A stretch of 64,000 nt of DNA, taken from IMG/VR virus record IMGVR_UViG_3300032280_000753, positions 32,001 through 96,000 of that record; one strand, written 5' to 3'. This document shows positions 6,404 through 47,525 of the stretch, piece after piece. Position 1 is the stretch's first letter. Each line of letters begins with the position of its first letter. Both the position numbers and the translations under genes were made by a program. Source of the DNA: a virus. Lineage: Duplodnaviria; Caudoviricetes. The notes under the pieces are model-generated. The model was not told the DNA's origin and did not search any database. It saw only the letters and a program-made list of their open reading frames with translations.

Positions 6404-7147
6404 TCAGCTACGTTTTCTGTCTTCGCCAACTTGTTTGTCAGTTAATCCATGGCGCAACATCGCAAGATCACTTGCTTCAATCTCACCATCATCGTCTAAA
6501 TCAAGCTTATCTTGGTCGCCATGAAGTTCTTCTTCCAACCAGGCTTCTAATAAAGCTTCTGCATGACGATTAAAGCGTTCTGCTACCACAGCAGCGCCAG
6601 ATGGTGAAGGAGCTCCTCCGGGACCACTTGGCATTCCTACGGCTACTTGTGTTCCAGGTCCAGAACCGCCAACAGAAGGAGATGATGTGTCACCTTCTTC
6701 AATCACATCTTCTTGTCCTGGACCGAGAATAACAACTTTAGCTACCGGCTCATCATGATGAGTTCTCATGCTTGGTCCTTCAACTTCCCAAGAACCACAT
6801 TCTTCCATTTCATATCCGCATTCTTTCAAATCACGAACATGTTCTTCTGTAAGAATACCATGATTTGTATATATCATTCTTATTTTGTTCTCTGGTAGAA
6901 AATCCCGATCACTTAATGACTTTTCACCATGACGAGATGGTTTTGGATTAGAAAATCCTTGTTCTACTGAAGCGCCTTGTCTGCGACGGGCTGCGAGTTC
7001 TTCTGGCGAGATACCTTTTAAAAGATCACGACTATGTGGATGATTTAATGGATTATTTGTATTTTCTGGATCATCTGGATCCATGAATATACTTTCTTCT
7101 ACAGTTTCACGAATTAAACGTTTAAGTTGTTCTAATGTAATTTTCAT
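6404..7147 (-). CDS. Acidic hypothetical protein with C-terminal EF-hand-like loop; candidate head-internal protein
   Basis: Leader MKITLEQLKRLIRETVEE; DLDDDGEIEASD matches a DxDxDG calcium loop. Confidence 0.65.
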   Translation of the reverse strand: MKITLEQLKRLIRETVEESIFMDPDDPENTNNPLNHPHSRDLLKGISPEELAARRRQGASVEQGFSNPKPSRHGEKSLSDRDFLPENKIRMIYTNHGILTEEHVRDLKECGYEMEECGSWEVEGPSMRTHHDEPVAKVVILGPGQEDVIEEGDTSSPSVGGSGPGTQVAVGMPSGPGGAPSPSGAAVVAERFNRHAEALLEAWLEEELHGDQDKLDLDDDGEIEASDLAMLRHGLTDKQVGEDRKRS

Positions 7148-7171
7148 TTTATATGCCTATTAGATAATATA

Positions 7172-10156
7172 TCAACCTTGACCGAAGTTGCTTGGGTTGT
7201 TGATTACGAAGTCTACAGACAAGAACTCGAGGGTGCGTGTTGGTTGTAAGTAAATCTTACCACGGATCGTCTTGTTCTCAAAGTCTGCTTCAGTTGTTGT
7301 AGATGTATCGATACGAACAAGGAAACGATCAACACCACGTTGATTTTGAACTCTTTGTAGGATTGGGTTAACCAACTGTGAGAAACGTGCGAGCGTCTCT
7401 GGTAGAGTTTGTTCGAAGAGAATTCTGTTCGAAACTTGACGAACTTGTCTACGGATGGAGAGAAGTAGACGACGAACGTTTACACGATCAAGAGCTGATT
7501 GTTGTGCATACATTGTCTTCTGACCCCAGATTACCAATCCTTCAGATCCTGCAAAGGATACGATTGGATTGATATCAACTTCATAGAGATCATCCATGTT
7601 TGTTCTGGATAGTTGTAGAGTTGAACGCTCCGTTGTTGCAAGAGCGCCTCTTGCAAAGCCGGCTGGAGCAAACCATGGGAATGCTACCGAGTCATTGAAA
7701 GAATAAGCTCCAAGAGCAACAACGGAAGATGGAACTTCACGAAGAGTATTAGAGATGCCGTCTTGCATTATTACATCTGGGAAGTAACAAGCTCCGAAAG
7801 AGCTGTTAATGCCACGATCACGGAAATTAAGAGCAGTATATCTTACAGACTCAACCTGATTACTGCTTGTGATAAGCATATTAACTGTATCATATTTTTC
7901 TATATCCATGATATAGATGGCATCAAATCTACCTTCAGCGATTTGCAAAGCTCTATCCGTAATAACTGGATTACGAATACCAGGAACGATGAATGCTTGA
8001 ACATCAATTTCAGTTGCATCAGCTATCAAATCAAGTGCAGTATTGTATGCTATTACAGTTGGTCCCAATTGTAGAAGTCTTGAAGTGTAATCAAGTTCTT
8101 CATTGATTGCTTTGTTTGTCAAATAACGTTCATCATAGTTGAAGATATTAACACCATCAAATCCGCCTTGGATGAAAAGATTGAACTTGGCAAGTTGTCG
8201 TGTTGATGGGTCAGAAAGATCTGCTACTGTCAATGCTCTTGTTGTAACAGTTGGAGTTATCGCTCCATTTCTTACATAGCTCCAATCTACTACTTGCGTA
8301 GTATCAGCCAATCCAGTCGTTGAGTTTATTACGATCTCAACATTCTCAAGAGAGAAGCCGTTGTTATTGAAACGGTCAGCATCAAGAATTCCGTTTGCTG
8401 CCGTATCAAGAACTCCTTCATTGTCCATGACTACGAAGTTAACGCTGTCTTGTTGGAAGTCTGGGAAGTAAGCTGCAAAGCTTTCAACGCTGGTTTCACG
8501 AATTGTGCTTGCATTTGGTTGAAGAGCGTTTATTTTACGTTCAAATTGAACGCCCCAATATAGTCCCTTGTCTGCTACTGTATTTGGAGACTCGCCTCTA
8601 ACCAAGTTCTCACGTAATGGAACTGGGATTTGAACAGTCTTTTGGAATGGATTTGCGACTGTATAACCAGTTGGACCAACTGCGCTGAACGCCGCAAGAG
8701 GAGCAGAACCAGATGTTACTAAGTGGGCTGGACCACGGAAACCAACTGGGAGAGCCGTTGCATCAACATCCGATGCATCTACTGCATCAGCAACCTCTAC
8801 ACGAATGTATTTTGAGTTATTCGTATAGTTTCCAAGAGTGATTAATCTTGCATCTCCATCATTTGCATCAAAGTTATAGAAAGTATTATAATCACCAATA
8901 ACACGAGCAATATAGTTTGGAGATGTTGAATCAAGTGATAATCCACGATATGCTTCAAGAACAACTTTCTTTTTATCATTATCTGCAAAATCTCTTACAA
9001 GAAGATCAAATGTTCCATAAAGATTTACGTCAGAAAGGCTTGGCGCAATGTTTTCAATTGAGATTTTAACTTTATTGTTTGCATATATACCGTCATCCAA
9101 AGAGTGAATGCGGAAAAGATTAACTGGTTTGCCGCCGAACTTTTGAGATATAATCCATGGACTCTTTGGTGAACGATAACGGTCTTCAAAGTTTTCATAG
9201 TTTGGAGCCGTTGTTGTTCCAGTATTTCTTGCTTGAGAACCGGTAATAAGGAATGCAACGTTTTCATAACCAGATGTTCTAAGTGCCAATACTTCGGTAG
9301 AACCGCTAATAACGTTAGCTCCAGTTACAACTGCATATGATGGGTGGATAACCCAATCAGTTTGTAACATATAACCAGCCTGTTCAAGCTTAAGCGGATC
9401 TCTATTCATTATGTTTCCGAAATAATTTGGAGCATCAATATCAAAAGAAGCCGTTATAACATTTCTATACATCGGATCCGTATTGGTTTGACCGGATACG
9501 AACATGACGAATTCTTCAAGAGAGTTTCGAAGATTGACAGAGCCTGTTACGTGACCGGCTGGTGCTACGCCCCCGCCAAATGAAGAAGATAATAATAGTT
9601 GAGTTCCAGAGGCAGCAAACAATACACCACGAACAACTGGGACACCAGCAGCAGATAAACCTGAATCTGTAAATATCGAAGAACTAACAACGGGATTTAC
9701 ACCAAGCAATTCATATTGGCTCATGAATGCGCCAAGGAAATATGTTCTGCCGAGGGGATTACCAACAGTAGCATAAGGATTGTTACCAAGAGCGCCTGCC
9801 CCTTCCGGAAGTTGTTCGCCAACTACGTAGCCACCGCCAGCAACCCTTCCACGAGGAGAATTGACCTGCCGGGCGGCGCCGGAACCCGCACCAAGAACAC
9901 GGATAAACGTTGCAGCTTGAGCGTTTCTTAACCATTCAGAAACAGCTAATGGACCAACATATATGTCATTAGTTGTTTCTCCGAATGTTGCTATAAAATC
10001 GTTTGTAGTGGCTAAGGTTACAGGAACGAAAGCTGGACCAGCGATTGCCGTGCCGATTATACCTGCTGGTATACCGGATGGTTGTATTGCTGTTGGTCCT
10101 GTTAGATCGATTGTTCTGGCTGAAACACCGGCTGATTTGAATGATATCTGTGTCAT
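7172..10156 (-). CDS. Tail sheath protein (T4 gp18-like), copy B
   Basis: N-terminal SAGVSARTIDLT; C-terminal PWFAPAGFARG...INPI...WGQKT...LDRVNVRRL. Confidence 0.95.
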   Translation of the reverse strand: MTQISFKSAGVSARTIDLTGPTAIQPSGIPAGIIGTAIAGPAFVPVTLATTNDFIATFGETTNDIYVGPLAVSEWLRNAQAATFIRVLGAGSGAARQVNSPRGRVAGGGYVVGEQLPEGAGALGNNPYATVGNPLGRTYFLGAFMSQYELLGVNPVVSSSIFTDSGLSAAGVPVVRGVLFAASGTQLLLSSSFGGGVAPAGHVTGSVNLRNSLEEFVMFVSGQTNTDPMYRNVITASFDIDAPNYFGNIMNRDPLKLEQAGYMLQTDWVIHPSYAVVTGANVISGSTEVLALRTSGYENVAFLITGSQARNTGTTTAPNYENFEDRYRSPKSPWIISQKFGGKPVNLFRIHSLDDGIYANNKVKISIENIAPSLSDVNLYGTFDLLVRDFADNDKKKVVLEAYRGLSLDSTSPNYIARVIGDYNTFYNFDANDGDARLITLGNYTNNSKYIRVEVADAVDASDVDATALPVGFRGPAHLVTSGSAPLAAFSAVGPTGYTVANPFQKTVQIPVPLRENLVRGESPNTVADKGLYWGVQFERKINALQPNASTIRETSVESFAAYFPDFQQDSVNFVVMDNEGVLDTAANGILDADRFNNNGFSLENVEIVINSTTGLADTTQVVDWSYVRNGAITPTVTTRALTVADLSDPSTRQLAKFNLFIQGGFDGVNIFNYDERYLTNKAINEELDYTSRLLQLGPTVIAYNTALDLIADATEIDVQAFIVPGIRNPVITDRALQIAEGRFDAIYIMDIEKYDTVNMLITSSNQVESVRYTALNFRDRGINSSFGACYFPDVIMQDGISNTLREVPSSVVALGAYSFNDSVAFPWFAPAGFARGALATTERSTLQLSRTNMDDLYEVDINPIVSFAGSEGLVIWGQKTMYAQQSALDRVNVRRLLLSIRRQVRQVSNRILFEQTLPETLARFSQLVNPILQRVQNQRGVDRFLVRIDTSTTTEADFENKTIRGKIYLQPTRTLEFLSVDFVINNPSNFGQG

Positions 10157-10205: not shown

Positions 10206-13200
10206 TCAGCCGAATTGAACGCCTGCTCTGGTGATAATAAAGTCAACTGCGATAAACTCAACTGCCTTAACTGGTAGTAAGTAAATCTTAGCATTCATTC
10301 TATTGTTCTCACGATCAAGTTCTGTGTTATTAGTTGCATCACATACAACCTTGAACTGTCTCAAACCACCTCTGGATTGGACCAAAGCTAATACTGGAGA
10401 AACTTTAGCAACGAAATCTTGATAAAGAGCTGGGGTTAGTTGCTCCCAGATTAATCTATTTCCAATATCGATAACTTGACGTTGAACATCCATAACCATG
10501 CGCTGAACGTTAATGCTCTCAAGAGAAGACTTCTCAGCATTAAGCGTCTTTTGTGCAAAGATTACGTAACCTTCATTTGGGAACTTGACGATTGGATTAA
10601 TTCTTACTTGATATAGCTTCTCACGTTCATTCTGATTTACTCTTGTTCTTGTAAGAGATACGAAGTTGAGTGCAGCACGGTTAAATCCGGCTGGAGCGAA
10701 CCATGGATAAGCGACCTTATCATTATAAGCAATTGCAGCAAGAGAAGCAACAGAAGATGGAACCGTAATTCTTTTCCCGCTTGCTGGATCTGTCATGACA
10801 ACATCTGGGAAATATGCGGCAACGAAATCATTGTTTATTGCACGGCTGTCAAATTGATCTGCCGTATTTTGAACGTTAATGTAACTTCCAGTTCCAGTTG
10901 TTGTTCCATCAAATATTCTATCACCATCAGAGTTGTAATTTGGAATATCCATAGAATATAGAGCTAAACCAAATCCAGCAGCGGCATCAGAAGCATAATC
11001 AGTTACAAATGGTTCACGTTGACCTGGGATTGCCAATAGATTTATATTTGAAGCAATTGGATCTGTAATAATAGTTGTAGCTACTTTGTAAGAATATATT
11101 TGGTTATTTGCAAATCCAACTCCATTTTGATTGAAATTAAATCCTGGGCTATCATAATTCGCATTTGCACCGCCATAACCGCCAATGCCATTTTCTGTTG
11201 AAGTAGAACGATCATCAAAATTTTGTGCGTGTGGGTCAAGAAGATTTACACCGTCAAATCCACCATACATGAATACTGTGTATTTGGCAAAGTTATTAAA
11301 TCTATTGAATTGGATTGGTTGCGTGCCGCTATGAACAAGACTTGCAAAAGTAAGTTGACTGCCAGAAACACAACTTCCGGTTACTGTATAGTCAGAAGGA
11401 TTAACTACTCCATTACGAACATATACAGCATTCTTCATTTGAGTTCCAACAGATGATGTAAGGAATGCAAATCCAGTTGTTCCAAGAGCTACTCTTGCAA
11501 GAGTAAACTTATTATCATTAAAATCGTCCGTTGAAGAACCGGTCACAAGAACGTCAAGCTTTTCAATGCCAGCAAATCTTGTGAAGGATGGAATGATGTT
11601 GTTAAGCTCACCGTTAATATTAGTATTAAGAACGTTATTGTTGTTACGTTCAAACTTAACGCCCCAATATAGTCTTCCATCTGTAATCTCTTGTGCCCCT
11701 GGTAGAGTTACAAGACCACTTCCAGTAACAGCGCCTCGTGTTACTCTGAAACGGTATGGGATTGGTGGAACTATTGCACCATTAAGACCAAACGTATTAG
11801 CAGAACCGCTTCCTGCAAGACGAATGTCTGTTGCCGTTGAAGAACTTACATCTGTTAATAATGGATTTGTATTTAATAGTTGCGGACCTCGGAAACCGAA
11901 TGGTAGCACGGTTCCAGGAACCATCTTTTGTTCTACCATCTCATTCATAACTACACGAATGTAGTTTGACATATTTGGATATTTGCCAGAACGAATGATG
12001 CGTCGATCATTTGGATCTTCTACGTCAAAGTTATAATATGCCTTTGCATCGCCAATAACTTTGGCGATATATTTGTCACTTTCTGGATCAAGGGTAAGAT
12101 CATTGAATTGCTCAATAACAGCTTGATTATAATCCGTATCTCCAAATTGACGAACCGTTAATGTGAATGAACCATATGGATTTGTTGGATTGGTAGAGGC
12201 AATAATATTTTGAATAGAGATTTTAATCTTATCGTTAGAGTAAACGCCATCATCAATGGCTTCAATGTGGAATAGATTATATTCTGTTGAACCATATGGT
12301 TGAGAAATGAAGCTTGGTGTTTTTGGCGTTTTAAAACGTGTGTCAAAACGTCCAAAGAGCTCAATGAATCGAGTTGAAGACAAACCTGATGTAGCAGAAG
12401 TATTGCCAGAACCAGAAGCGATTAGAACGCCAGATACCGTATTTTGAATGACTGTTGCAACTTCATCGTCTACTGCAAAATCTGCATAAACATAATGTTG
12501 TTCTTGTTCAAACTTTGCTGGATCTGTGTTAAGAAGCTTTGCAAAGTAGAGATCGGATGTTGGATTGAAGGAAGCAGATAGAATTCTAATCCCGGCTAAT
12601 CCATCTGCGCTTCCAAAGGTTGAACCAAGAGAAGTAGAGATTACAATCTTGAAATATGGTTCTTCACTGTCTGCTGGAGTAGAATAAACGGCAACGTCAT
12701 CAAGAAGTGGGTTAAACGTTTCGCCAGAACCAGACATGATCATAATCCGGGAACCAGATGCTGCAAATATTACACCACGAATAAGATTAACAAATCCAGA
12801 ACCATCGGCGGCGTCGGCAAAGCTATCATTATCAGTAAACATTGGGAAACCAATGCCTTGATTTGCTTGTAGTTGATGGCGTGCTGCCAAGAACTGCACC
12901 GCACCATGCGCCCGAGCACCTGTATTTGTTGCAACCGTGCCGCTTAATTTAAATCCGGCGCTTTTAACAATGCCAGCCGTATCTGTTGCAGATATATCAG
13001 CAGCAGTTACATTTGCGCCAGCTCCCAATACTCTTACGAATGTAAGCGCATTCCGGTTTTGTAAAAATTTATCTGCCGCATATGGGGCTGGTAACTTTGG
13101 ATCATAGCCACCAAACTTCGTTACGAAATCATTAAATGATCCAAGTGTGTATGGAACGAACGCCGGTCCTTTTTGGACTGCGCCAATTAAACCTGCTGGT

Positions 13201-15388: not shown

Positions 15389-16468
15389 TCAAACAGTTCT
15401 TGCAGCCGGATTTGATTGAGCTTTCTTATATCTATCAACAAATACGTTATATAACTCAAATAATCTTTTCATTGTATTTTCAACTTCGGCAGTATCATAA
15501 CGATGTTTAAAGTCATCTGGATTTATATTTGTTAATCCAAGAGATTTTGAATATTCAGTTCTTATCTTTTTTGCCATCTTTGCTGGATTGGATATAATCT
15601 TTCCTTTGGTTACATATTTCGAAATTTCAGCAATCATAGTAACGCCCAGCTCTTCTTCATCTTCAAATGATTGATTGTATTTTATAGGCGGCAATGGAGC
15701 ACGAAAAGGAACATCTGCTTGACTGTAATCAACGAAATTAAAAGGTTTTTTAAATTTTTCATAACCAACATAATATCTTTTACTAAGTCTGCCTGGTGAA
15801 AAATCGTCACCTAAAACCGCCCAATACGTATCCTTACCTAAATTCTTAATATCAAAATCAAATTTACTACTAACATTTTTTTCTTTTTTGTCAGCAAATA
15901 TATCCATAAACCATTTTATATAATCGGATTGGTCCATATTAAAAGGTTTTGTAAAAACTTCTTGCGGCGGATTAAATTTAAATGCTCTTAAAAAAGCATC
16001 ATTATAAAGCTTTATAGCATCTTTATCAAGCCGTGTTCTATTAAATTCTGTAGGAGTTGTAGTATATTGACCACTTTTCTCTATAGACTGTTTTCTTTTG
16101 CCAAATTTTTTAGCTAAATGTCCGGTAAAAGCATGAATAAGATCATGAGTTTCGTCATTGCCAATCATTTCAGGTTTTTTTAAATTCGGATTAAGATAAA
16201 GCTTGAAACTATTACGATCAGATTGAAAACTTACCCCAGCTTTTCTTTCTGTATCTGTTGCCATTGGAGCAGATTGTAGTTTTTGACCAGCATCTATTAT
16301 GTCGATTGGAATAGCTCCAGGTAACGCACCGCCCTCATATATCAATCTATTCATCGCTTGGGCTAAAGAATAAACCCCGATCATTGCAGGAGATAATTTT
16401 TGGATATCAATATCTTCTTCCAATTGCTCTTTGATTATAAGACGTATATATTCTTTTAATAGGTTCAC
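15389..16468 (-). CDS. Hypothetical protein with N-terminal leader
   Basis: GTG start, MNLLKEYIRLIIKEQLEE; HDLIH resembles a degenerate HExxH. Confidence 0.65.
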   Translation of the reverse strand: MNLLKEYIRLIIKEQLEEDIDIQKLSPAMIGVYSLAQAMNRLIYEGGALPGAIPIDIIDAGQKLQSAPMATDTERKAGVSFQSDRNSFKLYLNPNLKKPEMIGNDETHDLIHAFTGHLAKKFGKRKQSIEKSGQYTTTPTEFNRTRLDKDAIKLYNDAFLRAFKFNPPQEVFTKPFNMDQSDYIKWFMDIFADKKEKNVSSKFDFDIKNLGKDTYWAVLGDDFSPGRLSKRYYVGYEKFKKPFNFVDYSQADVPFRAPLPPIKYNQSFEDEEELGVTMIAEISKYVTKGKIISNPAKMAKKIRTEYSKSLGLTNINPDDFKHRYDTAEVENTMKRLFELYNVFVDRYKKAQSNPAARTV

Positions 16469-22139: not shown

Positions 22140-24050
22140 TCAGATAAGATTTAGATCGAGAACTGTAACGGTTCCGTAGAAGTCGTTACGAACCATTCTC
22201 TTGCCGTATCTCGTCATTACGCCCTTACGTGGGGTGAAGTCGTCTTGAGCGTAAATGACTGGCGTGAGGATTAGTGGAACGTATGGTGCGTATATATAAC
22301 CGCTCTCAAGGAACGTATTACCCTTAAGACCAACAAGGATCTTGTTAGCTGGGAAGTATGGATCCTTATAGACTGTGTAACGGTTATTAAGCGTACCAAC
22401 GGCTTCTGCGCCTACGGTCATGCTGTCACGTACTTGACCATCGGAGTCAAGACGGTAAGCTGGCTTGTAGGATACAAGATGCTCAAGGATCGTGCAAACG
22501 TCTGGTGACGTGACAAGGAAGTTTGCAGAACCACGAAGCGTCTTCTTGTAGATCGTGTTAGCAACGTCAGATACTGTCTCGATAAGGGTTTGATACCATT
22601 CTTGAATATTGACGAATGCCATTGGACCTGGGGATAGATTGGAGCTTTGAAGAGCCTCTGCACCCGTGAGCTTATTGACGATCTTGCCTGGAGCTCTGGA
22701 CCAGTAAAGGTTTGCTGCGCCAGCTTGTGTAAGAAGGTCGTTAAGGATTTCACGGTCGATCTCAAGCGTGATCATTTCGGAGAGGATGTTCGTAAGTTCT
22801 ACTTCGATATCGATTGAGTAGAAAGCCGTAAGGTCTTGTGCCATTTCTGGTGACCAACGTGCTCTGAGCTTACGGGTCGTTGCAGTTACTGAGGTTGATT
22901 CGATGCGGATATCAACTTCTGGGATTACTGGAGAAGCTGGGTTAACTCCGAAATCAGACTCGAAGGATGGGATCGTAAGAGTTGCGCCAGTTCCAGCGGA
23001 CGTGTCAAGTTTGTCAGCAAGAGCTGCGGATCCGGAAATTACGTCCGCTGCTGCTGGACCGAGCGTTGGGACGACGCCGCCGTTGCCAAGACGTAGTACG
23101 AATAGTACGTGGGAGCCGTTTAGTGGATCTGGCGTGAATACTTTGTCATTCCAGTTACCACGACGATTAAGCTTACGAAGATTAAGTACGCCGGAACCAC
23201 CTTGATATTGCTCGCCCCAGGCAACTTGGGTACCTGGATTGCCGAAGCCGGTGAGCGTAATTTGTTCAAGTGAATCTAGATCAGCACCCGTGATATTGGA
23301 CGTAATTACTGACGTGCTCATAAATAGGAAGCAGTAATCAAGTACGCCGTCAGTAAGGTCATTTTCAACCTTGCCATCGTAGTTGACATAACGAGCGTTG
23401 AAACCAACGAACTCTGCTGCTGTTGCTACGGTATCTGCTGGCGTCCACGTTGTTCCTGCTGCGCCCCATGCACCGATTGCAAAGTTTGAAGAAGATAGAG
23501 CGACAGAGCTCTTGTGGACTTTGGAGTAACCAGCGCCGACGAGATCATACATACCGCCAGTTGCAAGGGATCCGGAACGGACACCTGCGCCACGTGGGTT
23601 ATTGTATACTGAGGTACCATCAGCGTAAGTTGATGGGGTTCCGCCGCCTAGGTTTACGCCTGCGTTGCCACCGACGTTGTTACCATAGGTGTAATCGAGG
23701 TAGAAGAGTAGACCGGCTGGAAGGCTCATTGGCTGAACGGATACGATCTCGTTAGCGATAAGACCAGCGAATACTCTACGAACGATTGGGAATGCAACGT
23801 TGGTGAAACCAACTACTTGACCAGAGGAAGCAAGACCTGCGCCGCCGGTAGAAAGTGAGTTTGCGGTTTCCTTAAGAAGCTCTGCTGCTTGGTTTTCAAG
23901 AAGACGAGCCATATTGTCTTTATTGACGCCCTTAAGTCCTTCAAGAAGACCCGTGGCTTGCCACTTCTTTTGAAGTCTTGGAGCATCGGCTCCAAGTGAA
24001 CGGCGATGAACGCCTTCTGCTAATTGTGATAATGTGAACGAAGATTTCAT
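22140..24050 (-). CDS. Major capsid protein (T4 gp23-like)
   Basis: KW..TGLLEGL...LLENQ; FPIVRRVF...SVQPMSLPAGLLFYLD; TRKLRARWSPE.AQDL; YAPYVPL...FTPRKGVMTRYG; CAGGAG SD. Confidence 0.97.
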   Translation of the reverse strand: MKSSFTLSQLAEGVHRRSLGADAPRLQKKWQATGLLEGLKGVNKDNMARLLENQAAELLKETANSLSTGGAGLASSGQVVGFTNVAFPIVRRVFAGLIANEIVSVQPMSLPAGLLFYLDYTYGNNVGGNAGVNLGGGTPSTYADGTSVYNNPRGAGVRSGSLATGGMYDLVGAGYSKVHKSSVALSSSNFAIGAWGAAGTTWTPADTVATAAEFVGFNARYVNYDGKVENDLTDGVLDYCFLFMSTSVITSNITGADLDSLEQITLTGFGNPGTQVAWGEQYQGGSGVLNLRKLNRRGNWNDKVFTPDPLNGSHVLFVLRLGNGGVVPTLGPAAADVISGSAALADKLDTSAGTGATLTIPSFESDFGVNPASPVIPEVDIRIESTSVTATTRKLRARWSPEMAQDLTAFYSIDIEVELTNILSEMITLEIDREILNDLLTQAGAANLYWSRAPGKIVNKLTGAEALQSSNLSPGPMAFVNIQEWYQTLIETVSDVANTIYKKTLRGSANFLVTSPDVCTILEHLVSYKPAYRLDSDGQVRDSMTVGAEAVGTLNNRYTVYKDPYFPANKILVGLKGNTFLESGYIYAPYVPLILTPVIYAQDDFTPRKGVMTRYGKRMVRNDFYGTVTVLDLNLI

Positions 24051-24089: not shown

Positions 24090-26183
24090 TCAATCATTAT
24101 TTCTCTTGATGTTAGCTAGGATCTGCCATTTCTCAAACGTTCCGATTACTGGTTCAGAACCATTCGAAGATGCAGCTCTGGTTACGCCTTCATTAAGACG
24201 TGCGCTGCCAGCAGTCGTTGGCTTTGATGCCGAACCAACTACAGGAGCAGTGTGCGCTGCTGCTGCTTCATCAAGCTTTCTTACAATCTTTCCGTAGATA
24301 TCTTTAGCTTCTGCGATTGTTGAAGCACGATCAAGATGTTCTACGATTTGTTGCTTAACCTTACGGCTAAGGTCTTCTCTCACGAGGAACTTGTTTAGAT
24401 AAACAAGCTTGGAGAGGAAAAGGTTTGTTTCTGCCATTTCCTTTTTAAGTGTGGCAGTTTCTGCACGCTTTGCTTCTGCAAGGCGGCGTGACTTAACTTC
24501 ACGTGTGCGGGACTCGAGAAGAGCTTTGCGAACACGACGAGATTCCATCATTGGTGAATGTGGTTTCATTGCCATTTCATCCATCTCTTCTTCGCCACCC
24601 TCTTCATCGGTAAGAAGCATTTCTTCTTCTTCAGAGCCCATGCCTTCATCACCGGCTGCTGACATATCAAGGTCAACTACTTCTTCGTCGTCGCCCATGT
24701 CTTCGTCGCCCATGTCTTCTTCTTCTTCGCCGGAGAACATAAGATCAACTTCAAGATCTTCATCTGCGAGTTGTTCTTCAACTTCATCTGGAAGTTCAAC
24801 AGAAAGAACAAGATCCTCATCCATGCCACCTGGAGCTGCTGCTCCCATCATTTCAAGAAGCTTTTTACGTGCAGCTTCTTTGATTGCGGACTTGGAGGTT
24901 GTCTTCTTAGCAGCGGCTTCCTTACGGATCTTAGCAACTGCTTCTTTAAGAGCTGCTTCGCTGATTTCGAAGTAACCGGAATCGGAAACAGCGGCTGGAA
25001 CTTCGCCAGCTTCTGGTTCTTCGTGGGCATCAAGTTCATCACGGAGAGCTGCTTCTACTTCTTCAAGTAGAGCTTGTTCCCATGGACCTTCTTCTCCATC
25101 AAGACCTTCAAGTTCGTCAGCATCTACTGAGCCTGCTGCTGCGAGCTTTTCTGTGGTCTTTGAACCGCCGCCAAAAAGATCAGCGTGAACGCCAGACGCT
25201 TTCATGGCATGAGCAGTTGCTGCTTTATGTACTGCTACACCGGTTTCACCGGAGCTTTTGCTGTCTTGTGCAAGACGTTCGTTGTCTGCACCTTCGAAAA
25301 GTTTTGCTGCGAATTCTTTAAGAGTTGTCATAGTTGTATCCTTGTCCTTTTGCTTGTTATAACTATTGTTCAAATTTGCTTCTTTCAAGTGTAAGAACAA
25401 AAATTCTAATCTATTTTCGTTCAATTGTGCTTGTTTAGGTGAAATAACCTTGTTCGCAGCAAGACTATCAAGCTGCTCTAATAATGAAAAAAGCTTAGTT
25501 TTGTAGGCATCTTCTGTAAGAGCCGTAACTTTTGTTGTATACATACGGTCAATCTTAACTGCCATTTCAGCAAGTTGACGTTCAAATTGTTTTATTGTTT
25601 TTGCTTCTGCAATTGGTGCTGCTGGTGCAACTTCTTCTTCAGCGGCTGCTCCTGCGGTTTCTGGGGCTGGCGTTGGACCAGCAGTAGCTGGAGCAGCAGC
25701 GGCAGCTTCTGGAGCTGGCATTTCTGCTGGTGGTGTTTCTACTGGGGCGCTCGAGGCTGGCATTTCTGGTGCAGCCTCAATTGCTGGTGTAGTAGTTGCA
25801 ACTTCCATGGATGAAGCCTGCGACATATCAGTTGGATTAACAATGTCGCTACCTTCAGAAGCAAACAAATCATCGAAGCTTAAAGTAATTTTTCCATCTG
25901 TGCCACTTGGCATTGGAACATTAACAACATCAGAACCACCGGCAGGAGTTATAGGCATTTCAGATGGTGCCATAGCATCAGGCATTGCCATTGCTGCATC
26001 AGGTGCAGGAGCTTCTGGTGTCATATCTTCTTGTTCTAATAAGAAAGAGTTTGAAGCTTCCTTAGCAATCATTTGTTTGATATATGGATTAATTCTTTCA
26101 AGAATAGCACTACGAGCATCTTGCTCTGCTATCTCACGAATTTTTGCTGCATCAGCTAATGCTTCTTTATATAAATCACTCAT
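24090..26183 (-). CDS. Prohead scaffold/core protein (gp22-like)
   Basis: Directly upstream of capsid gene; very acidic; LYKEALADAAKIRE and ETNLFLSKLVYLNK; many L-x-E sites. Confidence 0.8.
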   Translation of the reverse strand: MSDLYKEALADAAKIREIAEQDARSAILERINPYIKQMIAKEASNSFLLEQEDMTPEAPAPDAAMAMPDAMAPSEMPITPAGGSDVVNVPMPSGTDGKITLSFDDLFASEGSDIVNPTDMSQASSMEVATTTPAIEAAPEMPASSAPVETPPAEMPAPEAAAAAPATAGPTPAPETAGAAAEEEVAPAAPIAEAKTIKQFERQLAEMAVKIDRMYTTKVTALTEDAYKTKLFSLLEQLDSLAANKVISPKQAQLNENRLEFLFLHLKEANLNNSYNKQKDKDTTMTTLKEFAAKLFEGADNERLAQDSKSSGETGVAVHKAATAHAMKASGVHADLFGGGSKTTEKLAAAGSVDADELEGLDGEEGPWEQALLEEVEAALRDELDAHEEPEAGEVPAAVSDSGYFEISEAALKEAVAKIRKEAAAKKTTSKSAIKEAARKKLLEMMGAAAPGGMDEDLVLSVELPDEVEEQLADEDLEVDLMFSGEEEEDMGDEDMGDDEEVVDLDMSAAGDEGMGSEEEEMLLTDEEGGEEEMDEMAMKPHSPMMESRRVRKALLESRTREVKSRRLAEAKRAETATLKKEMAETNLFLSKLVYLNKFLVREDLSRKVKQQIVEHLDRASTIAEAKDIYGKIVRKLDEAAAAHTAPVVGSASKPTTAGSARLNEGVTRAASSNGSEPVIGTFEKWQILANIKRNND

Positions 26184-26765: not shown

Positions 26766-27317
26766 TCATTTTCCGAACGCTAATTTAGCCCAATGACCAA
26801 TATCTCCGGATGGTGCAATAGCTTGTAATTGCTCCGGAGCGATCTTTTCTTGAGCACCTTGCATACCAGCAGCAGCCATGGCACCATAACCACCATTTCT
26901 GGAAGGATCTTGTGCCATTTGTTGTGGAAGAGTATGCATAGCGGTATCAGCTAATATTGCAGCATATGCATTAGCCATTTTATTATCGCCTTTACTCATT
27001 TGATTTGATGCTGCTTCAACCAATTTTTGCATATTTTGGTTCATTGGAGCAGAAGAGATTTGCATATCTGAATTTTCAGAAGAACCAAAACCCATATCAT
27101 CATAGCCTGCAATACGTGCGGCGGCGGCTCTGGTTCTGGCAGCATCAACAGGAGATTTTTGATTAATCATATCACGTGAAGCAACTCTATTTGTAGAAGG
27201 AGCTGTTCTTGTTCCTTCAGACATTACAGCGCCTACTTCGTTGAATGCGCCTTCTTTAATAAGTTCACGAATACAATCTTTAATCATTCCTTTGAAGTCT
27301 GATTTTGTCATCTTCAT
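26766..27317 (-). CDS. Hypothetical head-module protein with leader
   Basis: MKMTKSDFKGMIKDCIRELIKE; overlaps the protease stop codon. Confidence 0.7.
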   Translation of the reverse strand: MKMTKSDFKGMIKDCIRELIKEGAFNEVGAVMSEGTRTAPSTNRVASRDMINQKSPVDAARTRAAAARIAGYDDMGFGSSENSDMQISSAPMNQNMQKLVEAASNQMSKGDNKMANAYAAILADTAMHTLPQQMAQDPSRNGGYGAMAAAGMQGAQEKIAPEQLQAIAPSGDIGHWAKLAFGK

Positions 27318-27919
27318 ACACGACCCTTTTTAATTCCAAGAATATCATTTGCAATGCGATCAAGACGATCACTCTTTGAGAATATCTTATTAAGAATGCG
27401 TGGATCTACTTCTTTTGCCTCACGCATCATGTAAGCACCTGGAGTAGAAGGTTCAGAAACTAAGTCCCAGCAGATAAGATGAAGGTCATCTTGAACGATA
27501 TCTGCATCGCCACGGCTTCTTACAGAACCAAGGGCACGAGATGAAATACCAACTTTAACATTACTTTCAATAAGATTACGAGCGATGTTACCCATTGGAG
27601 TTGGAAGGATTTCAATCTTTCCAAAGATAACTTCATCGTCTGCCCAAATATCTGTAATAAGATGGGAAACGTTTTTAAGATTAACAACTGGATCATCGGC
27701 ATGGTCTAACTCACCCATTGCACGACGTTCCATAACAACCTTCTTATAATTTTCCATTTCTTTAAAAAGGATATCTTTTGGATAGATACGCCCATTTTGA
27801 TTAAGGGTGTCTGCACGTTGAATAACGCCTTTTACGAAGAGCTTACCTGGCTTGCCATCAGATGCATCTTCTTTAATAATTTCGTAGTTGAATTCTTTAA
27901 ATTCTTTTAGGAGTTTCAT
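27314..27919 (-). CDS. Prohead protease (T4 gp21-like)
   Basis: NQNGRIYP, GELDH, VSH, GISSRALGS, WDLVSEPSTPGA. Confidence 0.95.
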   Translation of the reverse strand: MKLLKEFKEFNYEIIKEDASDGKPGKLFVKGVIQRADTLNQNGRIYPKDILFKEMENYKKVVMERRAMGELDHADDPVVNLKNVSHLITDIWADDEVIFGKIEILPTPMGNIARNLIESNVKVGISSRALGSVRSRGDADIVQDDLHLICWDLVSEPSTPGAYMMREAKEVDPRILNKIFSKSDRLDRIANDILGIKKGRV

Positions 27920-28851: not shown

Positions 28852-30969
28852 TTATAGATTGCTTAAATCTAAATCGTCGTTTTCTTCCTCTTTTTTATCT
28901 TTGTTTGCATTTTCAATCAAGATATCGTCGCCTACCATATCCATCTCAAATAAACGATCATCATTCAAATCATCAAGTCTAACTTCATTTTCTGTGAGAA
29001 TTTTCTTATTTCTTCTTGCACCGGTATTTGCAAAATGATCATCGAGCTTATTCATTAGATTTTTCATATCACGTGATACAACCGGTGGTGGCTTGTAATC
29101 AAGTTCAAAATCTTCGGTTTTTGTTTCTTCAGAAAGAGAGAATTGGCTTTTAAGATTGAGAGCTCCTTTGTCATTAATATCTGTAAGATACTTGTTATTA
29201 CCAGACAACATATCTTTAAAGTCTGGCATTGATAGATTTCCTTTTCCAGCCATTCCTACACGTCTACGGTCATTGTGTTTAGCTGCCGAAAGAAATGGGG
29301 TTGCTTTAATTGGAAGCCCTACAGACGCCTCTGGAGAAGCCGATGGTTGTCCTGCTACAGAAACACCGCTCGTAGCTACAGCCTGCATATCATTGGTTAC
29401 ATTAACCGGATGCATATTGGTATTGGCATTACCGGCTATTGGTTCTCCAAGAGGAGCATTCTTCTTAACATTTGATCCTGGCATCACATAGTTGCTTGGG
29501 TCAAATGGATCCGTAGTTGTATTTTTCTCTGGGAGATTTTCTTTAACAGCAATTGCTTCAATCTCAACTTCACGGATTTTATCTCTACGAACGCCGGCTT
29601 CAATCCTAATAATATCGTCATCAGTAAGATCAAGGATTTTCTTTTGGATCCAGTCTTGATCAACAAGCTTGGTTTCTTTTGCTTTACCAGCAATATCAAA
29701 CTTTGTAGACATTGCTTCCAGCTTTTGCTGCATTGCAACTGTAGATGGATTGCTCAATCTTAGTTCAAAGGCAATGAGATCCTCGCCATCAAATCCTTTC
29801 GTATAAAGATGAACCATTGCCATCTTATTCAATTCGCTGAGAATAACTCTCTGCAATACTGATATGGTTCTGGAGAAGCGAACGTCCTGCTGGGCAAGAG
29901 ATGCCTTGGCAGAAAGGTTTTCATCAAAGTTCAAATATGGCTTTGGAACTTGAATAGCTGCAAAGAGTTTCTGTTGAAGATATTTTACGTCATCAACTGC
30001 TGTAGCGTTTTGACCACCAGCAAGAGTTTCGATTTTTGTTCCAGTTTGACCACCACGGACAGGAATGAAATAATCTTCATCAATGCTTAATGGATTGAAA
30101 CGTTGATCCATTCTACCATCTTGACGATTAACAACATCTTTAGAACGCATGGTTTGCTTAACAGCTTCCATGAAGCTTGGAACGTCATTAGGAGCTACGT
30201 TACCAACGTCAATATAGAATACACGACGTTCTGGGGAACGAACAACACGATAGACTAACATACTGTCTTCCATCATAACAAGTTGTCGCCAAACCCTTCT
30301 GGCAGGCTCCAAGATAGAAGTTCCATAGGGTAAGAATAGATCGTTACCCAAAATTCTCATATGGGTTATTTGCCAGTTCTCTAAATAACGATTACCTCTC
30401 GTTATCCATTTATAACGAACCGCATATGGATCACGCTGATCAAATCCTTCTTCTCTTTCAAGTTCATTTACAGGGATTGGCTGGACGTTAACGATACCAA
30501 TATCTGGGATTACTTCGTTATAAAGAAAGAAATCTCCATATTTGACCAAGTTACGGATCCAGGGACGGAGATTAAAGTCTATATTAAGAATATCATAGAA
30601 TAGCTCTTCAAGTGCTTTCTTGACTTCTGGGTTCTTAGAATATAAATGGAAAGCTTTTCCCTTTTCATCACCGGCCGCAGTTTCATCGGCAAAGATATTT
30701 AATGCTGCGGCGATCTCTGGCTGATATTCCATTTCAGCAAATTCAGAGTAGCGAGCCATGCGGTCAAGTATACCGTAGGCTCCGAGAACAGAGAATGGAG
30801 AGCTTTCACGACCAAACGGAAATGGACCACGATAACCTAAGTTACCACGGACTAATTGATTGTCATAATAGCTTTTATAGTCATATCCTTTGACACGACG
30901 TTGGATTGCGGGTCCAGACCTGAATAATTTGGTTAGTCTGGTGAAAAATGGATCATTTCGATTGGCCAA
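28852..30969 (-). CDS. Portal protein (T4 gp20-like)
   Basis: MEDSMLVYRVVRSPERRVFYIDVGN; EDYFIPVRGG; IETLAGG; TTG start with GAGG SD. Confidence 0.97.
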   Translation of the reverse strand: MANRNDPFFTRLTKLFRSGPAIQRRVKGYDYKSYYDNQLVRGNLGYRGPFPFGRESSPFSVLGAYGILDRMARYSEFAEMEYQPEIAAALNIFADETAAGDEKGKAFHLYSKNPEVKKALEELFYDILNIDFNLRPWIRNLVKYGDFFLYNEVIPDIGIVNVQPIPVNELEREEGFDQRDPYAVRYKWITRGNRYLENWQITHMRILGNDLFLPYGTSILEPARRVWRQLVMMEDSMLVYRVVRSPERRVFYIDVGNVAPNDVPSFMEAVKQTMRSKDVVNRQDGRMDQRFNPLSIDEDYFIPVRGGQTGTKIETLAGGQNATAVDDVKYLQQKLFAAIQVPKPYLNFDENLSAKASLAQQDVRFSRTISVLQRVILSELNKMAMVHLYTKGFDGEDLIAFELRLSNPSTVAMQQKLEAMSTKFDIAGKAKETKLVDQDWIQKKILDLTDDDIIRIEAGVRRDKIREVEIEAIAVKENLPEKNTTTDPFDPSNYVMPGSNVKKNAPLGEPIAGNANTNMHPVNVTNDMQAVATSGVSVAGQPSASPEASVGLPIKATPFLSAAKHNDRRRVGMAGKGNLSMPDFKDMLSGNNKYLTDINDKGALNLKSQFSLSEETKTEDFELDYKPPPVVSRDMKNLMNKLDDHFANTGARRNKKILTENEVRLDDLNDDRLFEMDMVGDDILIENANKDKKEEENDDLDLSNL

Positions 30970-31002: not shown

Positions 31003-31323
31003 GTGAAAACGTATGGAGTGTCCAAAGTGAATAAAAAGTCAAATTTAGAAAAGTTACTTCTTGAGCTTTTAAATACTGATGAACAGTTGAAAACCCCAGA
31101 TGCTGGAAAAGACATACAGACAACAGAAGAAGAGTCTAAAGGTCCAAGCATAGTATTACAACCTCCTAAAGAAGAAACAGAACACCAAATGTCGGATGAA
31201 GAGATGGCATCCTATTTAGAAGGAGGAAATATTGACACTTCTTCACAAGGAGTTGCAACTGGATTAGAAGAAGTGAATATAGGACTTAATGAAATCGAAA
31301 ACACATATTCGATAAAGATGTGA
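31003..31323 (+). CDS. Acidic hypothetical protein
   Basis: KSNLEKLLLELL leader-like motif; divergent from portal and sharing a palindromic TAATTA. Confidence 0.6.
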   Translation: MKTYGVSKVNKKSNLEKLLLELLNTDEQLKTPDAGKDIQTTEEESKGPSIVLQPPKEETEHQMSDEEMASYLEGGNIDTSSQGVATGLEEVNIGLNEIENTYSIKM

Positions 31324-44464: not shown

Positions 44465-44998
44465 TTAACTGGTTTTTGTTTGACCGTCTAATGTTTGCAA
44501 AGTAGTTAACGTTTTTTTAAGTTCATCTGAGGTTTTCTTAGTTCCATCAGATGCAGTTCCAAGTCCAGTTGCTTGATCAGCCTGAGCTTTAGTAAATGTA
44601 GCTTGAGTTTGTTCTGGTTTCGCCAAATCTTTTGAAGCTTTAGATGCGTTAGCTAAACCGGTAGAGGTTTTGTCAGTAGATGATATCATGTTATTAGTAT
44701 ATGATGTCATTTTATGTGCAGCAGTATTAATAGCTTTTTGATTTTTATTAATTAATTCACTGTTTGCGGCTACAGCATCTTCTATGTTTGATATCGTGCT
44801 TTCCGTATCATCATCTGTTGAACGTCCACCAGTTGATTTTGTTGTTTCTGTAGAGCTGGCTCCGGTTGTTGTGCCGGATGAACTTGTTGAACTGGTTCCA
44901 AAAGACGTTACTCCTCCAGAACTTCCTATAGTTCCTGCTTCTTTCAAAGCTTGTTGAACAATCAAACCGATATATTCTTTTAAAAGTTGTCTATTCAT
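44465..44998 (-). CDS. Ser/Thr-rich protein with leader; candidate head-internal protein
   Basis: MNRQLLKEYIGLIVQQALKE; TATTTA 6 nt upstream. Confidence 0.7.
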   Translation of the reverse strand: MNRQLLKEYIGLIVQQALKEAGTIGSSGGVTSFGTSSTSSSGTTTGASSTETTKSTGGRSTDDDTESTISNIEDAVAANSELINKNQKAINTAAHKMTSYTNNMISSTDKTSTGLANASKASKDLAKPEQTQATFTKAQADQATGLGTASDGTKKTSDELKKTLTTLQTLDGQTKTS

Positions 44999-45441: not shown

Positions 45442-45476
45442 GTTTATAGTTTATTATTTAACTTAACATTTTCTTA

Positions 45477-47525
45477 TCACATTACGAAAACTTTACCAAT
45501 AGATGCACCAAGAATAATTTCTAAATCACCTTCTATTTCCAAAGCAATACTTTCCAGTTCTGATGTGTTGATTGCTTCACGGGCTTCTTCATCTTTACTG
45601 TAACGAGTTTGTTTGCGACCCCAACCTGCAATTCCAGTAATAATAGATTGTGGCAATGGATTAAACGTAATCTTACCAGTTAAAAGATATTGAGCCAATA
45701 ACTCATAAGCAAACTCATACCAATTACGCATTTTATTGTCACGAGCACTCTTCATCGTGCCAAGTTGTTGAGCTACATATTTTAATATTTTGTCTCGACC
45801 GGCATTACCTTGGAAATCATATGTTTTGCCATAAACATCAATTCCATAAACTTCTTTTAGTATATCTGCGATACGTTTACGCAAATCTTTAATAAATTCT
45901 TGCCATTTCTCCGCTGGAAATCCTCTTCCCCTTGCGAGAGCATGACCTAAACGATGTGCCAATATCCATCCAGATGACATATAACGTTCAGCACCCGTGT
46001 TACTTGTATATATAATCGTTATTGTGTTGCCGTCAGGATCTGGAATTTCATCAGCAGTAAGTTTCATCTTGTCTCTTACGAAACTCATATCAACTAAACC
46101 GACTTCTCTAAACTGGGATTTGTTAACTCTTGGATCGTTAACAAGATACATATCAAAATCAAATGGAGTTTTTTCCCATTGTCGTTTAATCTTTTCTACA
46201 CCTCGTGGAGACGTTAAGATTTTTCTATCAACATCTCCGAAAGAAGAACGCCGACCCCAATCTCCAACAGTCTTAAACTGTCTGATCGCCATTTCATCTA
46301 CTTCTTCTGAGAATAGACTTTCCATCAATTTTTCAAGATTAGTTTTATTTTCTTTTAGCATTTCTTCGAATTTTTCTTTTTCACGATTTGCGATTGCAAT
46401 TCCAAGTTCTCTTCCGCTTAGTTCTGGAAATTCATTGCTTGAAACTGTTGGCTCATATTCCAAAAATGATTGAATTGTTTTATTTGATATTCCCAAGGCT
46501 TCGGCAAAATATTTCAATGATGCATCTTTTAATCCACTAATTTTATATATTTTTTTCAATTTTAAAGCTATTTCCGGAGAAATGTTTTTGAAGTCGAGTA
46601 AAAATTGAACCTGTCTGATTTCATCTCCAGTATATTTTGCTTTATTTAGTTTTATAGCTACAGCTTTTGCATCATTGTTTTGCAATAAAAGTGCTAAAGC
46701 TACTGGGATATCACTTGTTTCTGAATATTCTTTGTTAACAACCAGTCCTGGGAATATTTGCTCCCATAGATTGTAACGTTCTATCAGTTGATAAAAACTA
46801 ATAGGACTAATTGCAGATTTTATTCCTTTTAAGAATTCATCTCTTATTCTTTCCCCTGATACTCCTTCTAAAGAATTATCATCGGATATTGCTTCATCTG
46901 CTTCTTTATCTAATTTAGTCCCAAAACGAGCAGCAAATCTTAATGCTCTTAATATTCTTAATCTATCTTCATCAAATCTTTCTTTTGCATTGCCTACGGT
47001 TTTTACAACTTTGTTTTCTATGTCTTGTATGCCGCCTACATAGTCAACAATCTCTTTATTTGAGATATCATAAAAAAGAGCATTCATTGTTAAATCCCGA
47101 CGATTGACATCTTTTTCAATTGTTGCAAATTCAACACTATCAGGTCTTCTGCCTTTTCCTATGTCCGTTCTAAAAGTAGCGATTTCATAATCATTTCCTT
47201 CTGGAGTGATTATTTTAACAATACCAAATGCCCTACCCAATTCTAAAACTCTATACTCTGGATAAGCTTTTAGAATTTCTTCTACTTCATCTGGAGTAGC
47301 ATTCGTGGTTACATCAAAATCTTTAGGAGATTTACCAAGTAATGCATCTCTTACAGAGCCACCTACTAAATAAAAGTCTTTTCCAGAGCTTTTAAAAATA
47401 TCTGACAATGTTTCTAAATCAGTCGGCAAAGTAATTTCAAATTTTTGTCTTACTTGTTCTGATAGTATTGTAGATATGTTTAATTCTTGCAGAAGTTTTA
47501 CAAGATTAGTTTTATTAATTGCCAT
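45477..47525 (-). CDS. cca: Class II tRNA nucleotidyltransferase (CCA-adding) fused to an unknown C-terminal domain
   Basis: VGGSVRD, KDFD, RRDLTMNA, EDRLRILRALRF, SGERI; about 280 extra C-terminal residues containing HRLGH. Confidence 0.88.
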   Translation of the reverse strand: MAINKTNLVKLLQELNISTILSEQVRQKFEITLPTDLETLSDIFKSSGKDFYLVGGSVRDALLGKSPKDFDVTTNATPDEVEEILKAYPEYRVLELGRAFGIVKIITPEGNDYEIATFRTDIGKGRRPDSVEFATIEKDVNRRDLTMNALFYDISNKEIVDYVGGIQDIENKVVKTVGNAKERFDEDRLRILRALRFAARFGTKLDKEADEAISDDNSLEGVSGERIRDEFLKGIKSAISPISFYQLIERYNLWEQIFPGLVVNKEYSETSDIPVALALLLQNNDAKAVAIKLNKAKYTGDEIRQVQFLLDFKNISPEIALKLKKIYKISGLKDASLKYFAEALGISNKTIQSFLEYEPTVSSNEFPELSGRELGIAIANREKEKFEEMLKENKTNLEKLMESLFSEEVDEMAIRQFKTVGDWGRRSSFGDVDRKILTSPRGVEKIKRQWEKTPFDFDMYLVNDPRVNKSQFREVGLVDMSFVRDKMKLTADEIPDPDGNTITIIYTSNTGAERYMSSGWILAHRLGHALARGRGFPAEKWQEFIKDLRKRIADILKEVYGIDVYGKTYDFQGNAGRDKILKYVAQQLGTMKSARDNKMRNWYEFAYELLAQYLLTGKITFNPLPQSIITGIAGWGRKQTRYSKDEEAREAINTSELESIALEIEGDLEIILGASIGKVFVM

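Follow-up and report, generated by a model that had tools for sequence, protein, structure and literature searches.

Exchangeable leader helices of three classes on unrelated proteins of a giant T4-like phage: candidate capsid-targeting propeptides

Results

Three classes of leader head unrelated proteins

The window is a 64-kb stretch from an uncultured giant freshwater myophage, a distant relative of T4 (IMG/VR record IMGVR_UViG_3300032280_000753, positions 32,001 to 96,000). The nearest record to it is a 50.9-kb viral contig, G001, and its capsid protein is 41 to 48% identical, over the aligned parts, to those of Flavobacterium phage immuto and an uncultured 484-kb phage. In this window a few short, exchangeable helix tags, which we call leaders, head about 10 unrelated proteins whose genes are dispersed over both strands. 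An earlier reading of the same DNA, hereafter the original prediction, had described one shared helix at eight N-termini. All eight are present and far more alike than chance would make them, but their similarity resolves into three motif classes rather than one family, and the proteins that bear them (the cargoes) have no family in common. The leaders are as follows, with bit scores from the profiles described below the list.

16415..16468, minus strand: class I leader MNLLKEYIRLIIKEQLEE of a protein of 359 amino acids (aa) (gene 15389-16468); A1 profile, 27.4 bits
44939..44998, minus strand: class I leader MNRQLLKEYIGLIVQQALKE, followed by A, of a Ser/Thr-rich 177-aa protein (gene 44465-44998); A1, 29.2 bits
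17845..17892, plus strand: class I leader MSNQLLKTYIHEIIKE of a 183-aa HAD-type phosphatase (gene 17845-18396); A1, 29.5 bits
33598..33663, plus strand: class I leader RERALLREYLSLLMEQKNLLNE in a 430-aa coiled-coil/Gln-Pro-repeat protein (gene 33562-34854); A1, 18.4 bits
5433..5477, minus strand: class I leader remnant MSLIKEYIHHILKEL-stop at the C-terminus of open reading frame (ORF) 5430-5789; A1, 20.4 bits
47457..47525, minus strand: class II leader MAINKTNLVKLLQELNISTILSE of a 682-aa CCA-adding enzyme fusion (gene 45477-47525); motif
46302..46352, minus strand: internal class II copy, LKE followed by NKTNLEKLMESLFSEE, at the junction of the CCA domain and a C-terminal domain of about 290 aa; 9.4 bits
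31033..31077, plus strand: class II leader KKSNLEKLLLELLNT of the 106-aa acidic ORF 31003-31323; class II motif
2235..2273, plus strand: class II leader MKNLKKLLSYLLE of the 194-aa ORF 2235-2819; class II motif
7094..7147, minus strand: class III leader MKITLEQLKRLIRETVEE of an acidic 247-aa protein (gene 6404-7147); profile from G007 only, 20.8 bits, E = 7e-5
27252..27317, minus strand: class III/I leader MKMTKSDFKGMIKDCIRELIKE, followed by G, of the 183-aa prohead-core candidate; class III profile, 18.8 bits

The class I motif is LL[KR]xY[IL]xxhhxE, where h is hydrophobic. Its strict form, LL[KR].Y[IL]..[ILVM][ILVM], matches four times in the entire six-frame translation of the window, and each match lies in a real ORF, in the first 7 to 33 residues past a stop. 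These ORFs start at 16468 (359-aa protein), 44998 (177-aa protein), 17845 (HAD phosphatase) and 33562 (430-aa protein, with the leader from residue 17). The original prediction had proposed a motif or profile search of ORF N-termini. The profile A1, which was built from the window leaders and those of their orthologs, found five matches of 18 to 29.5 bits in the six-frame window, compared to 3.0 bits for the next best; the fifth, at the C-terminus of ORF 5430-5789, is a copy that the original prediction had not listed. We also compared the first 35 residues of the 66 ORFs of at least 90 aa, all against all, with internal segments as the control. Four pairs scored at least 35, against none expected from the internal segments, and three of the four were class I pairs, the fourth being formed by homologous tail-sheath paralogs. 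The class I cluster in this comparison also pulled in a 183-aa head-module protein and the N-terminus of the prohead protease.

The class II motif, NL.KLL..L (NLxKLLxxL), occurs three times in ORFs of more than 60 aa, always at the N-terminus (2241, 31042 and 47507), where a rough residue-frequency estimate predicts about 0.05 occurrences. These are the 194-aa ORF (2235), the 106-aa ORF (31003) and the CCA enzyme (47525), which holds a further copy internally. The class III motif, MK[IV]T..[QE]L[KR], stands at the start of ORF 7147 and of the 183-aa protein that follows the protease. In G007, a relative of 320 kb whose head module is syntenic, at least seven ORFs begin MK[IV]T..[QE]L[KR].[LM][IV].E[AT]V...L.E, and one of them encodes the protein directly after the G007 protease. 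A class III profile made from G007 sequences only recovered the window's leaders at 7147 (20.8 bits) and 27317 (18.8 bits), with the next best match at 4.8 bits. The class I, II and III searches of the window thus validated every leader cited earlier, each within its own class.

The leaders are better conserved than most cargoes

Orthologs of the 359-aa protein are 41 to 52% identical to it and have nearly the same leader. Among the five orthologs of the 177-aa family the leader is 62% identical and the remainder 36%; only the leader is conserved, and it ends in L-x-E in all of them. Mean pairwise identities (leader/rest) are 0.62/0.36 for the 177-aa, 0.78/0.55 for the 359-aa, 0.59/0.40 for the 430-aa and 0.95/0.77 for the 183-aa core family. 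The leader is therefore better conserved than its cargo in four of five families; the HAD family, a strongly conserved enzyme, shows the reverse (0.75 versus 0.87). At the DNA level, leader copies differ at synonymous codons.

Structure models of two cargoes predict that the leader is a helix of low confidence apart from the fold. In the AlphaFold2 (AF2) model of the 359-aa protein the helix spans residues 2 to 12, and the predicted local distance difference test (pLDDT) score is below 50 over residues 1 to 17, which suggests that the leader is not packed on the fold. In the HAD model the helix spans residues 3 to 15 with a pLDDT of 57 to 59, compared to 80 to 93 for the core.

The cargoes comprise the HAD phosphatase, the CCA enzyme and the Ser/Thr-rich 177-aa, coiled-coil 430-aa, acidic 247-aa and 359-aa proteins. 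The original prediction had taken the cargoes for enzymes. This suits the HAD protein (PHROG 415, polynucleotide-kinase-phosphatase type, with a weak Acid_PPase match) and the CCA enzyme, which has a PolyA_pol domain (PF01743) at residues 51 to 174, but the others either lack an assigned enzyme identity or are Ser/Thr-rich or coiled-coil proteins with more the look of internal or scaffold proteins. The 430-aa protein carries QPVQ repeats; its leader comes after MHSNSKEKIKKIRE, with I-R-E directly ahead, and is retained in its orthologs. The 247-aa gene adjoins the sheath genes.

For the 359-aa protein, domain and PHROG searches gave no sequence family, a protein search with the ORF gave no match, and a nucleotide search with 13.4-17.9 kb found none in the phage collection. 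Its modeled fold (pLDDT 68) had no significant match in the PDB (Foldseek E ≥ 0.4; VIA Z ≤ 5.4) and none in BFVD. Weak, recurring peptidase-like names in the structure searches are a lead at most, and a protein-atlas search placed the protein weakly (0.85 to 0.87) near the LPD1 and LPD23 clusters, with scores under the level of evidence. The C-terminal 290 or so aa of the CCA protein (45480-46352, minus strand) form a separate domain with a conserved AHRLGHAL and no family match. Since both have an H-x-x-x-H, we considered whether this domain is homologous to the 359-aa family and rejected the idea (hhalign probability 0.2).

Two leader classes meet on a head-module protein

The minus-strand head module reads, in order, portal, 287-aa ORF, prohead protease, 183-aa ORF, 171-aa ORF, acidic 697-aa ORF and capsid gene. 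Its main features are listed here.

28852..30969, minus strand: portal protein, gp20 family (PF07230 at 4.5e-74), at the upstream end of the head module
27314..27919, minus strand: prohead protease, T4 gp21 family (Peptidase_S77; PF03420 at 4.8e-23, PHROG 207 at 1.4e-47)
26766..27317, minus strand: prohead-core candidate of 183 aa, directly after the protease
24090..26183, minus strand: acidic 697-aa scaffold candidate (isoelectric point 4.5), whose N-terminal region holds ...INPYIKQMIAKE followed by A
22140..24050, minus strand: major capsid protein, gp23 family (PF07068 at 4.9e-78), candidate maturation site ELLKE61 followed by TANS

A T4-like head module is thus present, in which the portal (PF07230) and capsid (PF07068) genes flank a gp21-family protease. 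The latter shares 32% identity with T4 gp21, including the catalytic motifs GELDH (His) and SSRALGS (Ser). When the capsid protein is aligned with T4 gp23, the T4 cut site, LTE65 followed by A, falls within a few residues of LKE61. Family searches gave no match for the 697-aa protein, which sits between the core protein and the capsid gene; its position and composition make it a scaffold candidate.

The 183-aa core candidate gives two leader classes a circumstantial link to the head: its first 18 residues fit class III and its residues 11 to 22 fit class I. Its orthologs (…FKGLIKECIRELIKE) reach 14.6 bits with the class I profile (E of about 3e-3 per record). The N-terminus of the protease, MKLLKEFKEFNYEIIKE followed by D, also resembles class I: its 12-mer YEIIKEDASDGK scores 32 against the HAD leader, with just 3.0 bits in the A1 profile. 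A leader-type peptide therefore stands on a prohead-core protein for classes I and III and not for class II. A candidate link between class II and the 287-aa head-module protein gave no profile match and was rejected.

A class I leader is absent from a more distant T4-like phage, G003 (L059; a 237-kb complete record), which does encode an S77 protease. The 99-aa protein just before that protease starts with the class III-like MGKLTREALKGIVREVMKE; the best cultured match is Tenacibaculum phage pT24, in which the corresponding position bears the annotation "DNA ligase 1," probably wrongly.

A protease-type motif borders the leaders

The original prediction had leaders end in L/I-x-E. Most of them do, although at no single fixed position. 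In class I leaders, hydrophobic-x-Glu occurs at motif positions 10 to 12 (IIKE, LINE, ILQE, ILSE), at positions 14 to 16 (QLEE, ALKE, LLNE) or at both, and it follows nearly all leaders, the motif being short and its position varied. In the HAD family the leader's Glu16 is invariant across 11 homologs, down to 46% identity.

The motif also lies ahead of leaders that are not N-terminal. Each of the four internal copies has [LI]-x-E immediately ahead of it, namely IRE before RA-LLREY in the 430-aa protein, INE before MS-LLKEY and IKE before VA-LIKEY in a polyprotein of G001, and LKE before NKTNL in the CCA protein. With a background of 1.34% per position for [LI]xE in the window's proteins, the probability of this by chance is about 2.5e-6, a post hoc figure to be read as an order of magnitude.

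Leaders are modular relative to their cargoes

Scattered over both strands and modular relative to their cargo, the leaders behave as the portable tag, independent of gene location, that the original prediction had proposed. Sequence comparison indicates that they are exchangeable, in that a given cargo has a leader of another class, or no leader at all, in relatives. The G007 ortholog of the HAD phosphatase, in the same place beside a 434-aa neck-region gene, begins at the first strand of the fold and has no leader, and the G007 homolog of the 430-aa protein begins MTKVNLENVIRLVVEEVLDE, a leader of another class than class I. In G001 and G005, the leader that the 106-aa ORF has (class II) is found on another protein, of 421 to 423 aa.

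CCA homologs occur in 30 viral contigs, and the 290-aa C-terminal domain is found only in the three nearest. All the others end near residue 390, the site of the internal class II leader, which marks the junction as a fusion point. The N-terminal extensions are diverse (LLKEMIHVV…, KLLNEFVSLLVTE, ILLSEFVNKYVDE, KKNIKKLLREGLLTE and the T4-like MKIKRYQQFITE), amounting to at least four leader types, one of them near a T4 sequence (YQQFITE). In 15 of 16 distinct CCA sequences, [LIVMF]xE lies 5 to 11 residues ahead of the conserved IPLPxDL.

Comparison with G001 suggests that gain and loss of cargo genes take place at the leader. The G001 counterpart of ORF 5430-5789 has 509 aa and consists of a 104-aa N-domain and two units, each a class I leader plus a module of about 200 aa; the two modules are 53% identical to each other, and neither a stop or start codon nor an obvious ribosome-binding site separates the units. 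An atlas search with the G001 module gave no usable match. Homology between the window and G001 (95%) breaks after nine codons of the first leader and picks up again immediately past the polyprotein's stop codon, leaving the MSLIKEYIHHILKEL-stop remnant in the window.

In G001 an additional 457-aa paralog, also with a leader, separates the 434-aa gene from the 359-aa gene and ends in strongly basic PAPARPTKK repeats. The 359-aa protein has leader-bearing paralogs at L007:7262-8632, L005:1602-2948 and L026:7333-8643, and these likewise end in a strongly basic Pro/Ala/Lys/Arg repeat (…PARPTKKAPARRTKR), which looks like a DNA-binding tail as on internal head proteins. A 65-aa ORF directly after a 449-aa paralog (L005:2965-3159) consists of the first 40 or so and the last 25 or so residues of the 359-aa protein and, as it retains both ends, is an in-frame internal deletion variant.

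Two motifs lie upstream of tagged genes

The original prediction had noted a late TAnTTA motif ahead of several tagged genes. We found TATTTA[TA] 6 to 20 nucleotides (nt) ahead of the start codon in about 10 minus-strand genes, a spacing that implies very short mRNA leaders. These include likely virion genes starting at 15351, 28779 and 6346 (the virion role of 15351 and 6346 is read solely from gene position and N-terminal sequence), as well as three tagged genes, at 45004 (the 179-aa form of the 177-aa protein), 47525 (CCA) and 5789. At 45004, TATTTAAT lies 6 nt ahead of the upstream ATG. The 359-aa and HAD genes instead have [CT][CT]AATTAG[AT] about 20 nt ahead, as do the genes at 33185 and 58862, and the same motif stands 58 nt ahead of a sheath gene. 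The two motifs probably represent two classes of promoter or translation signal. TATTTA[TA] sites include 5801, 15362, 18794, 28823, 45010 and 47536, and [CT][CT]AATTAG[AT] sites include 13341, 16488, 17828, 33205 and 58884, with GGAAC preceding in two cases.

Two further observations concern neighboring genes. The tandem ORFs of about 1,000 aa at 7172-10156 and 10206-13283 (minus strand) have alike N-termini (…GIPAGIIG and …GIPAGLIG) and, by position and N-terminal sequence only, read as tail-sheath paralogs; G007 has the same sheath-like pair at 104253-110349. A 581-aa ORF at 36397-38142 (plus strand) has an N-terminus that, by eye only, is like that of a GroEL-type chaperonin.

Searches beyond the window

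A homolog search with residues 1 to 40 of the 359-aa protein returned orthologs only, since the word index needs more shared words than the leader supplies. The leader profile, run against 1.84 billion representatives at E ≤ 1e-3 (a level beyond the reach of a 20-position profile), returned only a repeat protein and a HAD fragment. An alignment of class I leaders gave 125 pattern matches in viral contigs, about what a rough residue-frequency estimate predicts by chance; the three confirmed matches were all orthologs of the 177-aa protein (179-aa form), which restricts class I to this clade. P0006, an unrelated 334-aa metagenomic protein with five tandem 29-residue repeats (IPAPKDGSSVTAEDVLPELKEYIASLVKE; LPELKEYIASLVKE five times), matches the profile by chance of composition and is a caution for motif-only searches. 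A literature search for the leader motif strings gave nothing relevant.

Radical-SAM genes (PF04055) had no match in the fragment records G001, G002, G005 and G006; the window was not scanned for PF04055. G007 has a single radical-SAM gene (294683-295051), which is some 170 kb away from the closest of the G007 leader genes found and sits amid another gene family. This is a very large family of 70- to 130-aa ORFs at about 240 to 310 kb of G007 (L111-L115) with an N-terminal …[KR]VGDL[IV]…; it dominates the all-against-all N-terminus comparison of that genome, and the radical-SAM gene lies in its midst.

Discussion

Given that both classes head this phage's own capsid-core protein, the leaders of classes I and III probably act like the load-then-cut signal of T4, and we judge it reasonably likely that they are capsid-targeting propeptides of the T4 type. 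In such a scheme, an amphipathic helix of 12 to 22 residues would dock a protein onto the assembling prohead core, which would include the 183-aa protein after the protease, with the same helix. Once the shell has closed, the gp21-type serine protease would cut after the Glu of the hydrophobic-x-Glu at the leader's end and, for internal copies, also just ahead of the leader. The mature cargo would thus be freed inside the head and would later leave with the DNA. The leaders would be exchangeable cassettes, of which phages of the clade put a different class or none on the same cargo. We infer the binding to the core, the cleavage, the packaging and the injection from sequence.

The precedent is well established. 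In T4, gp21 cleaves after the Glu of L/I-X-E (PMC9026906), and the internal head proteins all join the core through a capsid targeting sequence of 10 to 20 residues (PMC5694885, PMC9026906), which gp21 removes from IPI, IPII, IPIII and Alt (Mullaney and Black 1996, reviewed in PMC9026906, PMC3012670 and PMC5694885). As in T4, we see a short (10 to 22 aa) N-terminal amphipathic propeptide on unrelated proteins with scattered genes; this peptide is similar to what prohead-core proteins have at their N-termini, and in most cases its end is hydrophobic-x-Glu. The protease is of the same family (PF03420), and the cargo set differs among related phages, as do the variable T4 internal proteins (PMC3012670). 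The T4 scaffold gp22 starts MLKEQLIAEA and the internal proteins MKTYQEFIAEA (NC_000866), so that scaffold and internal proteins are alike at the N-terminus there, just as the core candidate and the cargoes are here. Unlike T4, this phage has at least three leader classes, carries leader copies within polyproteins with the cutting motif on either side, and counts a HAD phosphatase and a CCA-adding enzyme among its cargoes; its leaders are known from sequence alone. The likeness is one of kind, as between KTYQEFIAE (T4) and KTYIHEIIKE, and not homology, because T4 sequences have no leader-profile match.

The T4-type capsid tag of the original prediction is therefore supported in part, by the S77 protease and the leader on a core protein; the hydrophobic-x-Glu next to nearly all leaders, short and variable in position, would fit it. 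Class II lacks the link to a head protein. For that reason we hold class II lower, despite its modular behavior and the LKE that brackets its internal copy: that it works in the same way is conceivable and somewhat doubtful.

Several observations weigh against a capsid-targeting role. No T4 protein scored as much as 5 bits with the leader profile, and the class II profile found no counterpart on any head protein. Hydrophobic-x-Glu is short, is expected in any Lys/Glu-rich amphipathic helix and is not fixed in position. The window's own remnant has Asp rather than Glu before the leader (IND before MS), and one 430-aa ortholog has IRD in place of IRE. Several tagged genes adjoin tail genes, not head genes, and a TTGACA-containing region upstream of the HAD gene has been read as an early promoter. 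Finally, our literature searches found no experimental precedent for a packaged tRNA CCA-adding enzyme or small phosphatase.

The strongest alternative, which we nonetheless regard as unlikely, is that the leaders serve to dock the proteins onto a different common partner (a phage chaperonin, such as the GroEL-like ORF at 36397-38142 might encode; an assembly at the membrane or cytoskeleton; a factor for tail or baseplate assembly; or an enzyme that modifies proteins with a common tag, as for ribosomally synthesized and post-translationally modified peptides [RiPPs]) and that hydrophobic-x-Glu is incidental. Amphipathic helices serve many interactions, the class II leaders have no head-protein link, and several tagged genes adjoin sheath, tube or neck genes. 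This explanation, however, does not anticipate that classes I and III meet on the protein after the prohead protease, that the protease's own N-terminus is class I-like, or that the protease motif brackets the internal copies; for a modifying enzyme in particular, the four fragment records gave no radical-SAM gene and that of G007 is remote from its leader genes.

Less probable still is that the leaders have no targeting role and are either a conserved junction spread by recombination between copies or the inherited cap helix of an ancient domain shuffling. The break between the window and G001 falls within a leader, G001 has tandem leader-module repeats and an extra paralog, and leader codons are alike at the DNA level in an AT-rich genome, all of which such a history would explain. 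Yet synonymous codons differ between copies, the leader is kept in orthologs of 41 to 52% identity and exceeds cargo conservation, and classes replace one another on one cargo while the distance to hydrophobic-x-Glu is kept, which points toward selection on the peptide. Chance likeness of Lys/Glu/Leu/Ile-rich N-termini in an AT-rich genome (35 to 45% G+C, with helix-forming N-termini common) is effectively refuted by the strict pattern, by the six-frame profile (18 to 29 bits versus 3), by the four pairs at 35 or more where none was expected, and by the G007 profile that cross-validates two window leaders.

Other giant phages offer a second comparison for capsid targeting. In phiKZ, 201phi2-1 and SPN3US, propeptides of head and ejection proteins are cut by gp21-like proteases at S/A/G-x-E (PMC5694885, PMC9026906). 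The resemblance lies in the size of these phages, in their many processed inner-head proteins, in the identical N-termini of paralogs (gp53 and gp54 of SPN3US) and in the multiple cutting sites per propeptide. The phiKZ-type propeptides are mostly longer than 100 residues and are cut at A/S-x-E, whereas the leaders here are as short as those of T4 and have Leu, Ile, Val or Met at P3. A similar idea reportedly underlies the polyvalent proteins of phages and conjugative elements that Iyer, Burroughs, Anand, de Souza and Aravind described in 2017, strings of unrelated modules said to be delivered with the DNA and then cut apart. Unlike these, most of the proteins described here consist of one module behind a leader of its own, and we detected neither a MuF nor a zincin domain.

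As a principle this is textbook T4 biology, and the capsid-targeting sequence has already been proposed as a general protein-loading route of T4-like phages (PMC9026906). What is new are the three specific classes, their overlap on one core protein, their swapping on a fixed cargo, the leaders bracketed by cutting motifs at polyprotein joints and the recurrent tagging of phage CCA enzymes. A broader and more speculative proposal, to which we give limited credence, is that giant freshwater T4-like phages have a limited repertoire of exchangeable leader helices, bracketed by protease sites, that serves as a plug-in capsid address system, by which any gene product, translation-repair (CCA-adding) and polynucleotide-phosphatase-like HAD enzymes included, could enter the head, alone or within a polyprotein, and be injected along with the DNA. 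The recurrent CCA tagging, the swapping of leaders and their place at polyprotein joints would together point to modular loading wider than that of T4. Anti-defense and host-takeover functions are usually among those of injected proteins, a group that at present comes to light only when the virions of cultured phages are analyzed by proteomics. If the proposal is true, the leaders would give a list, from sequence only, of the injected "first-strike" proteome of uncultured giant phages.

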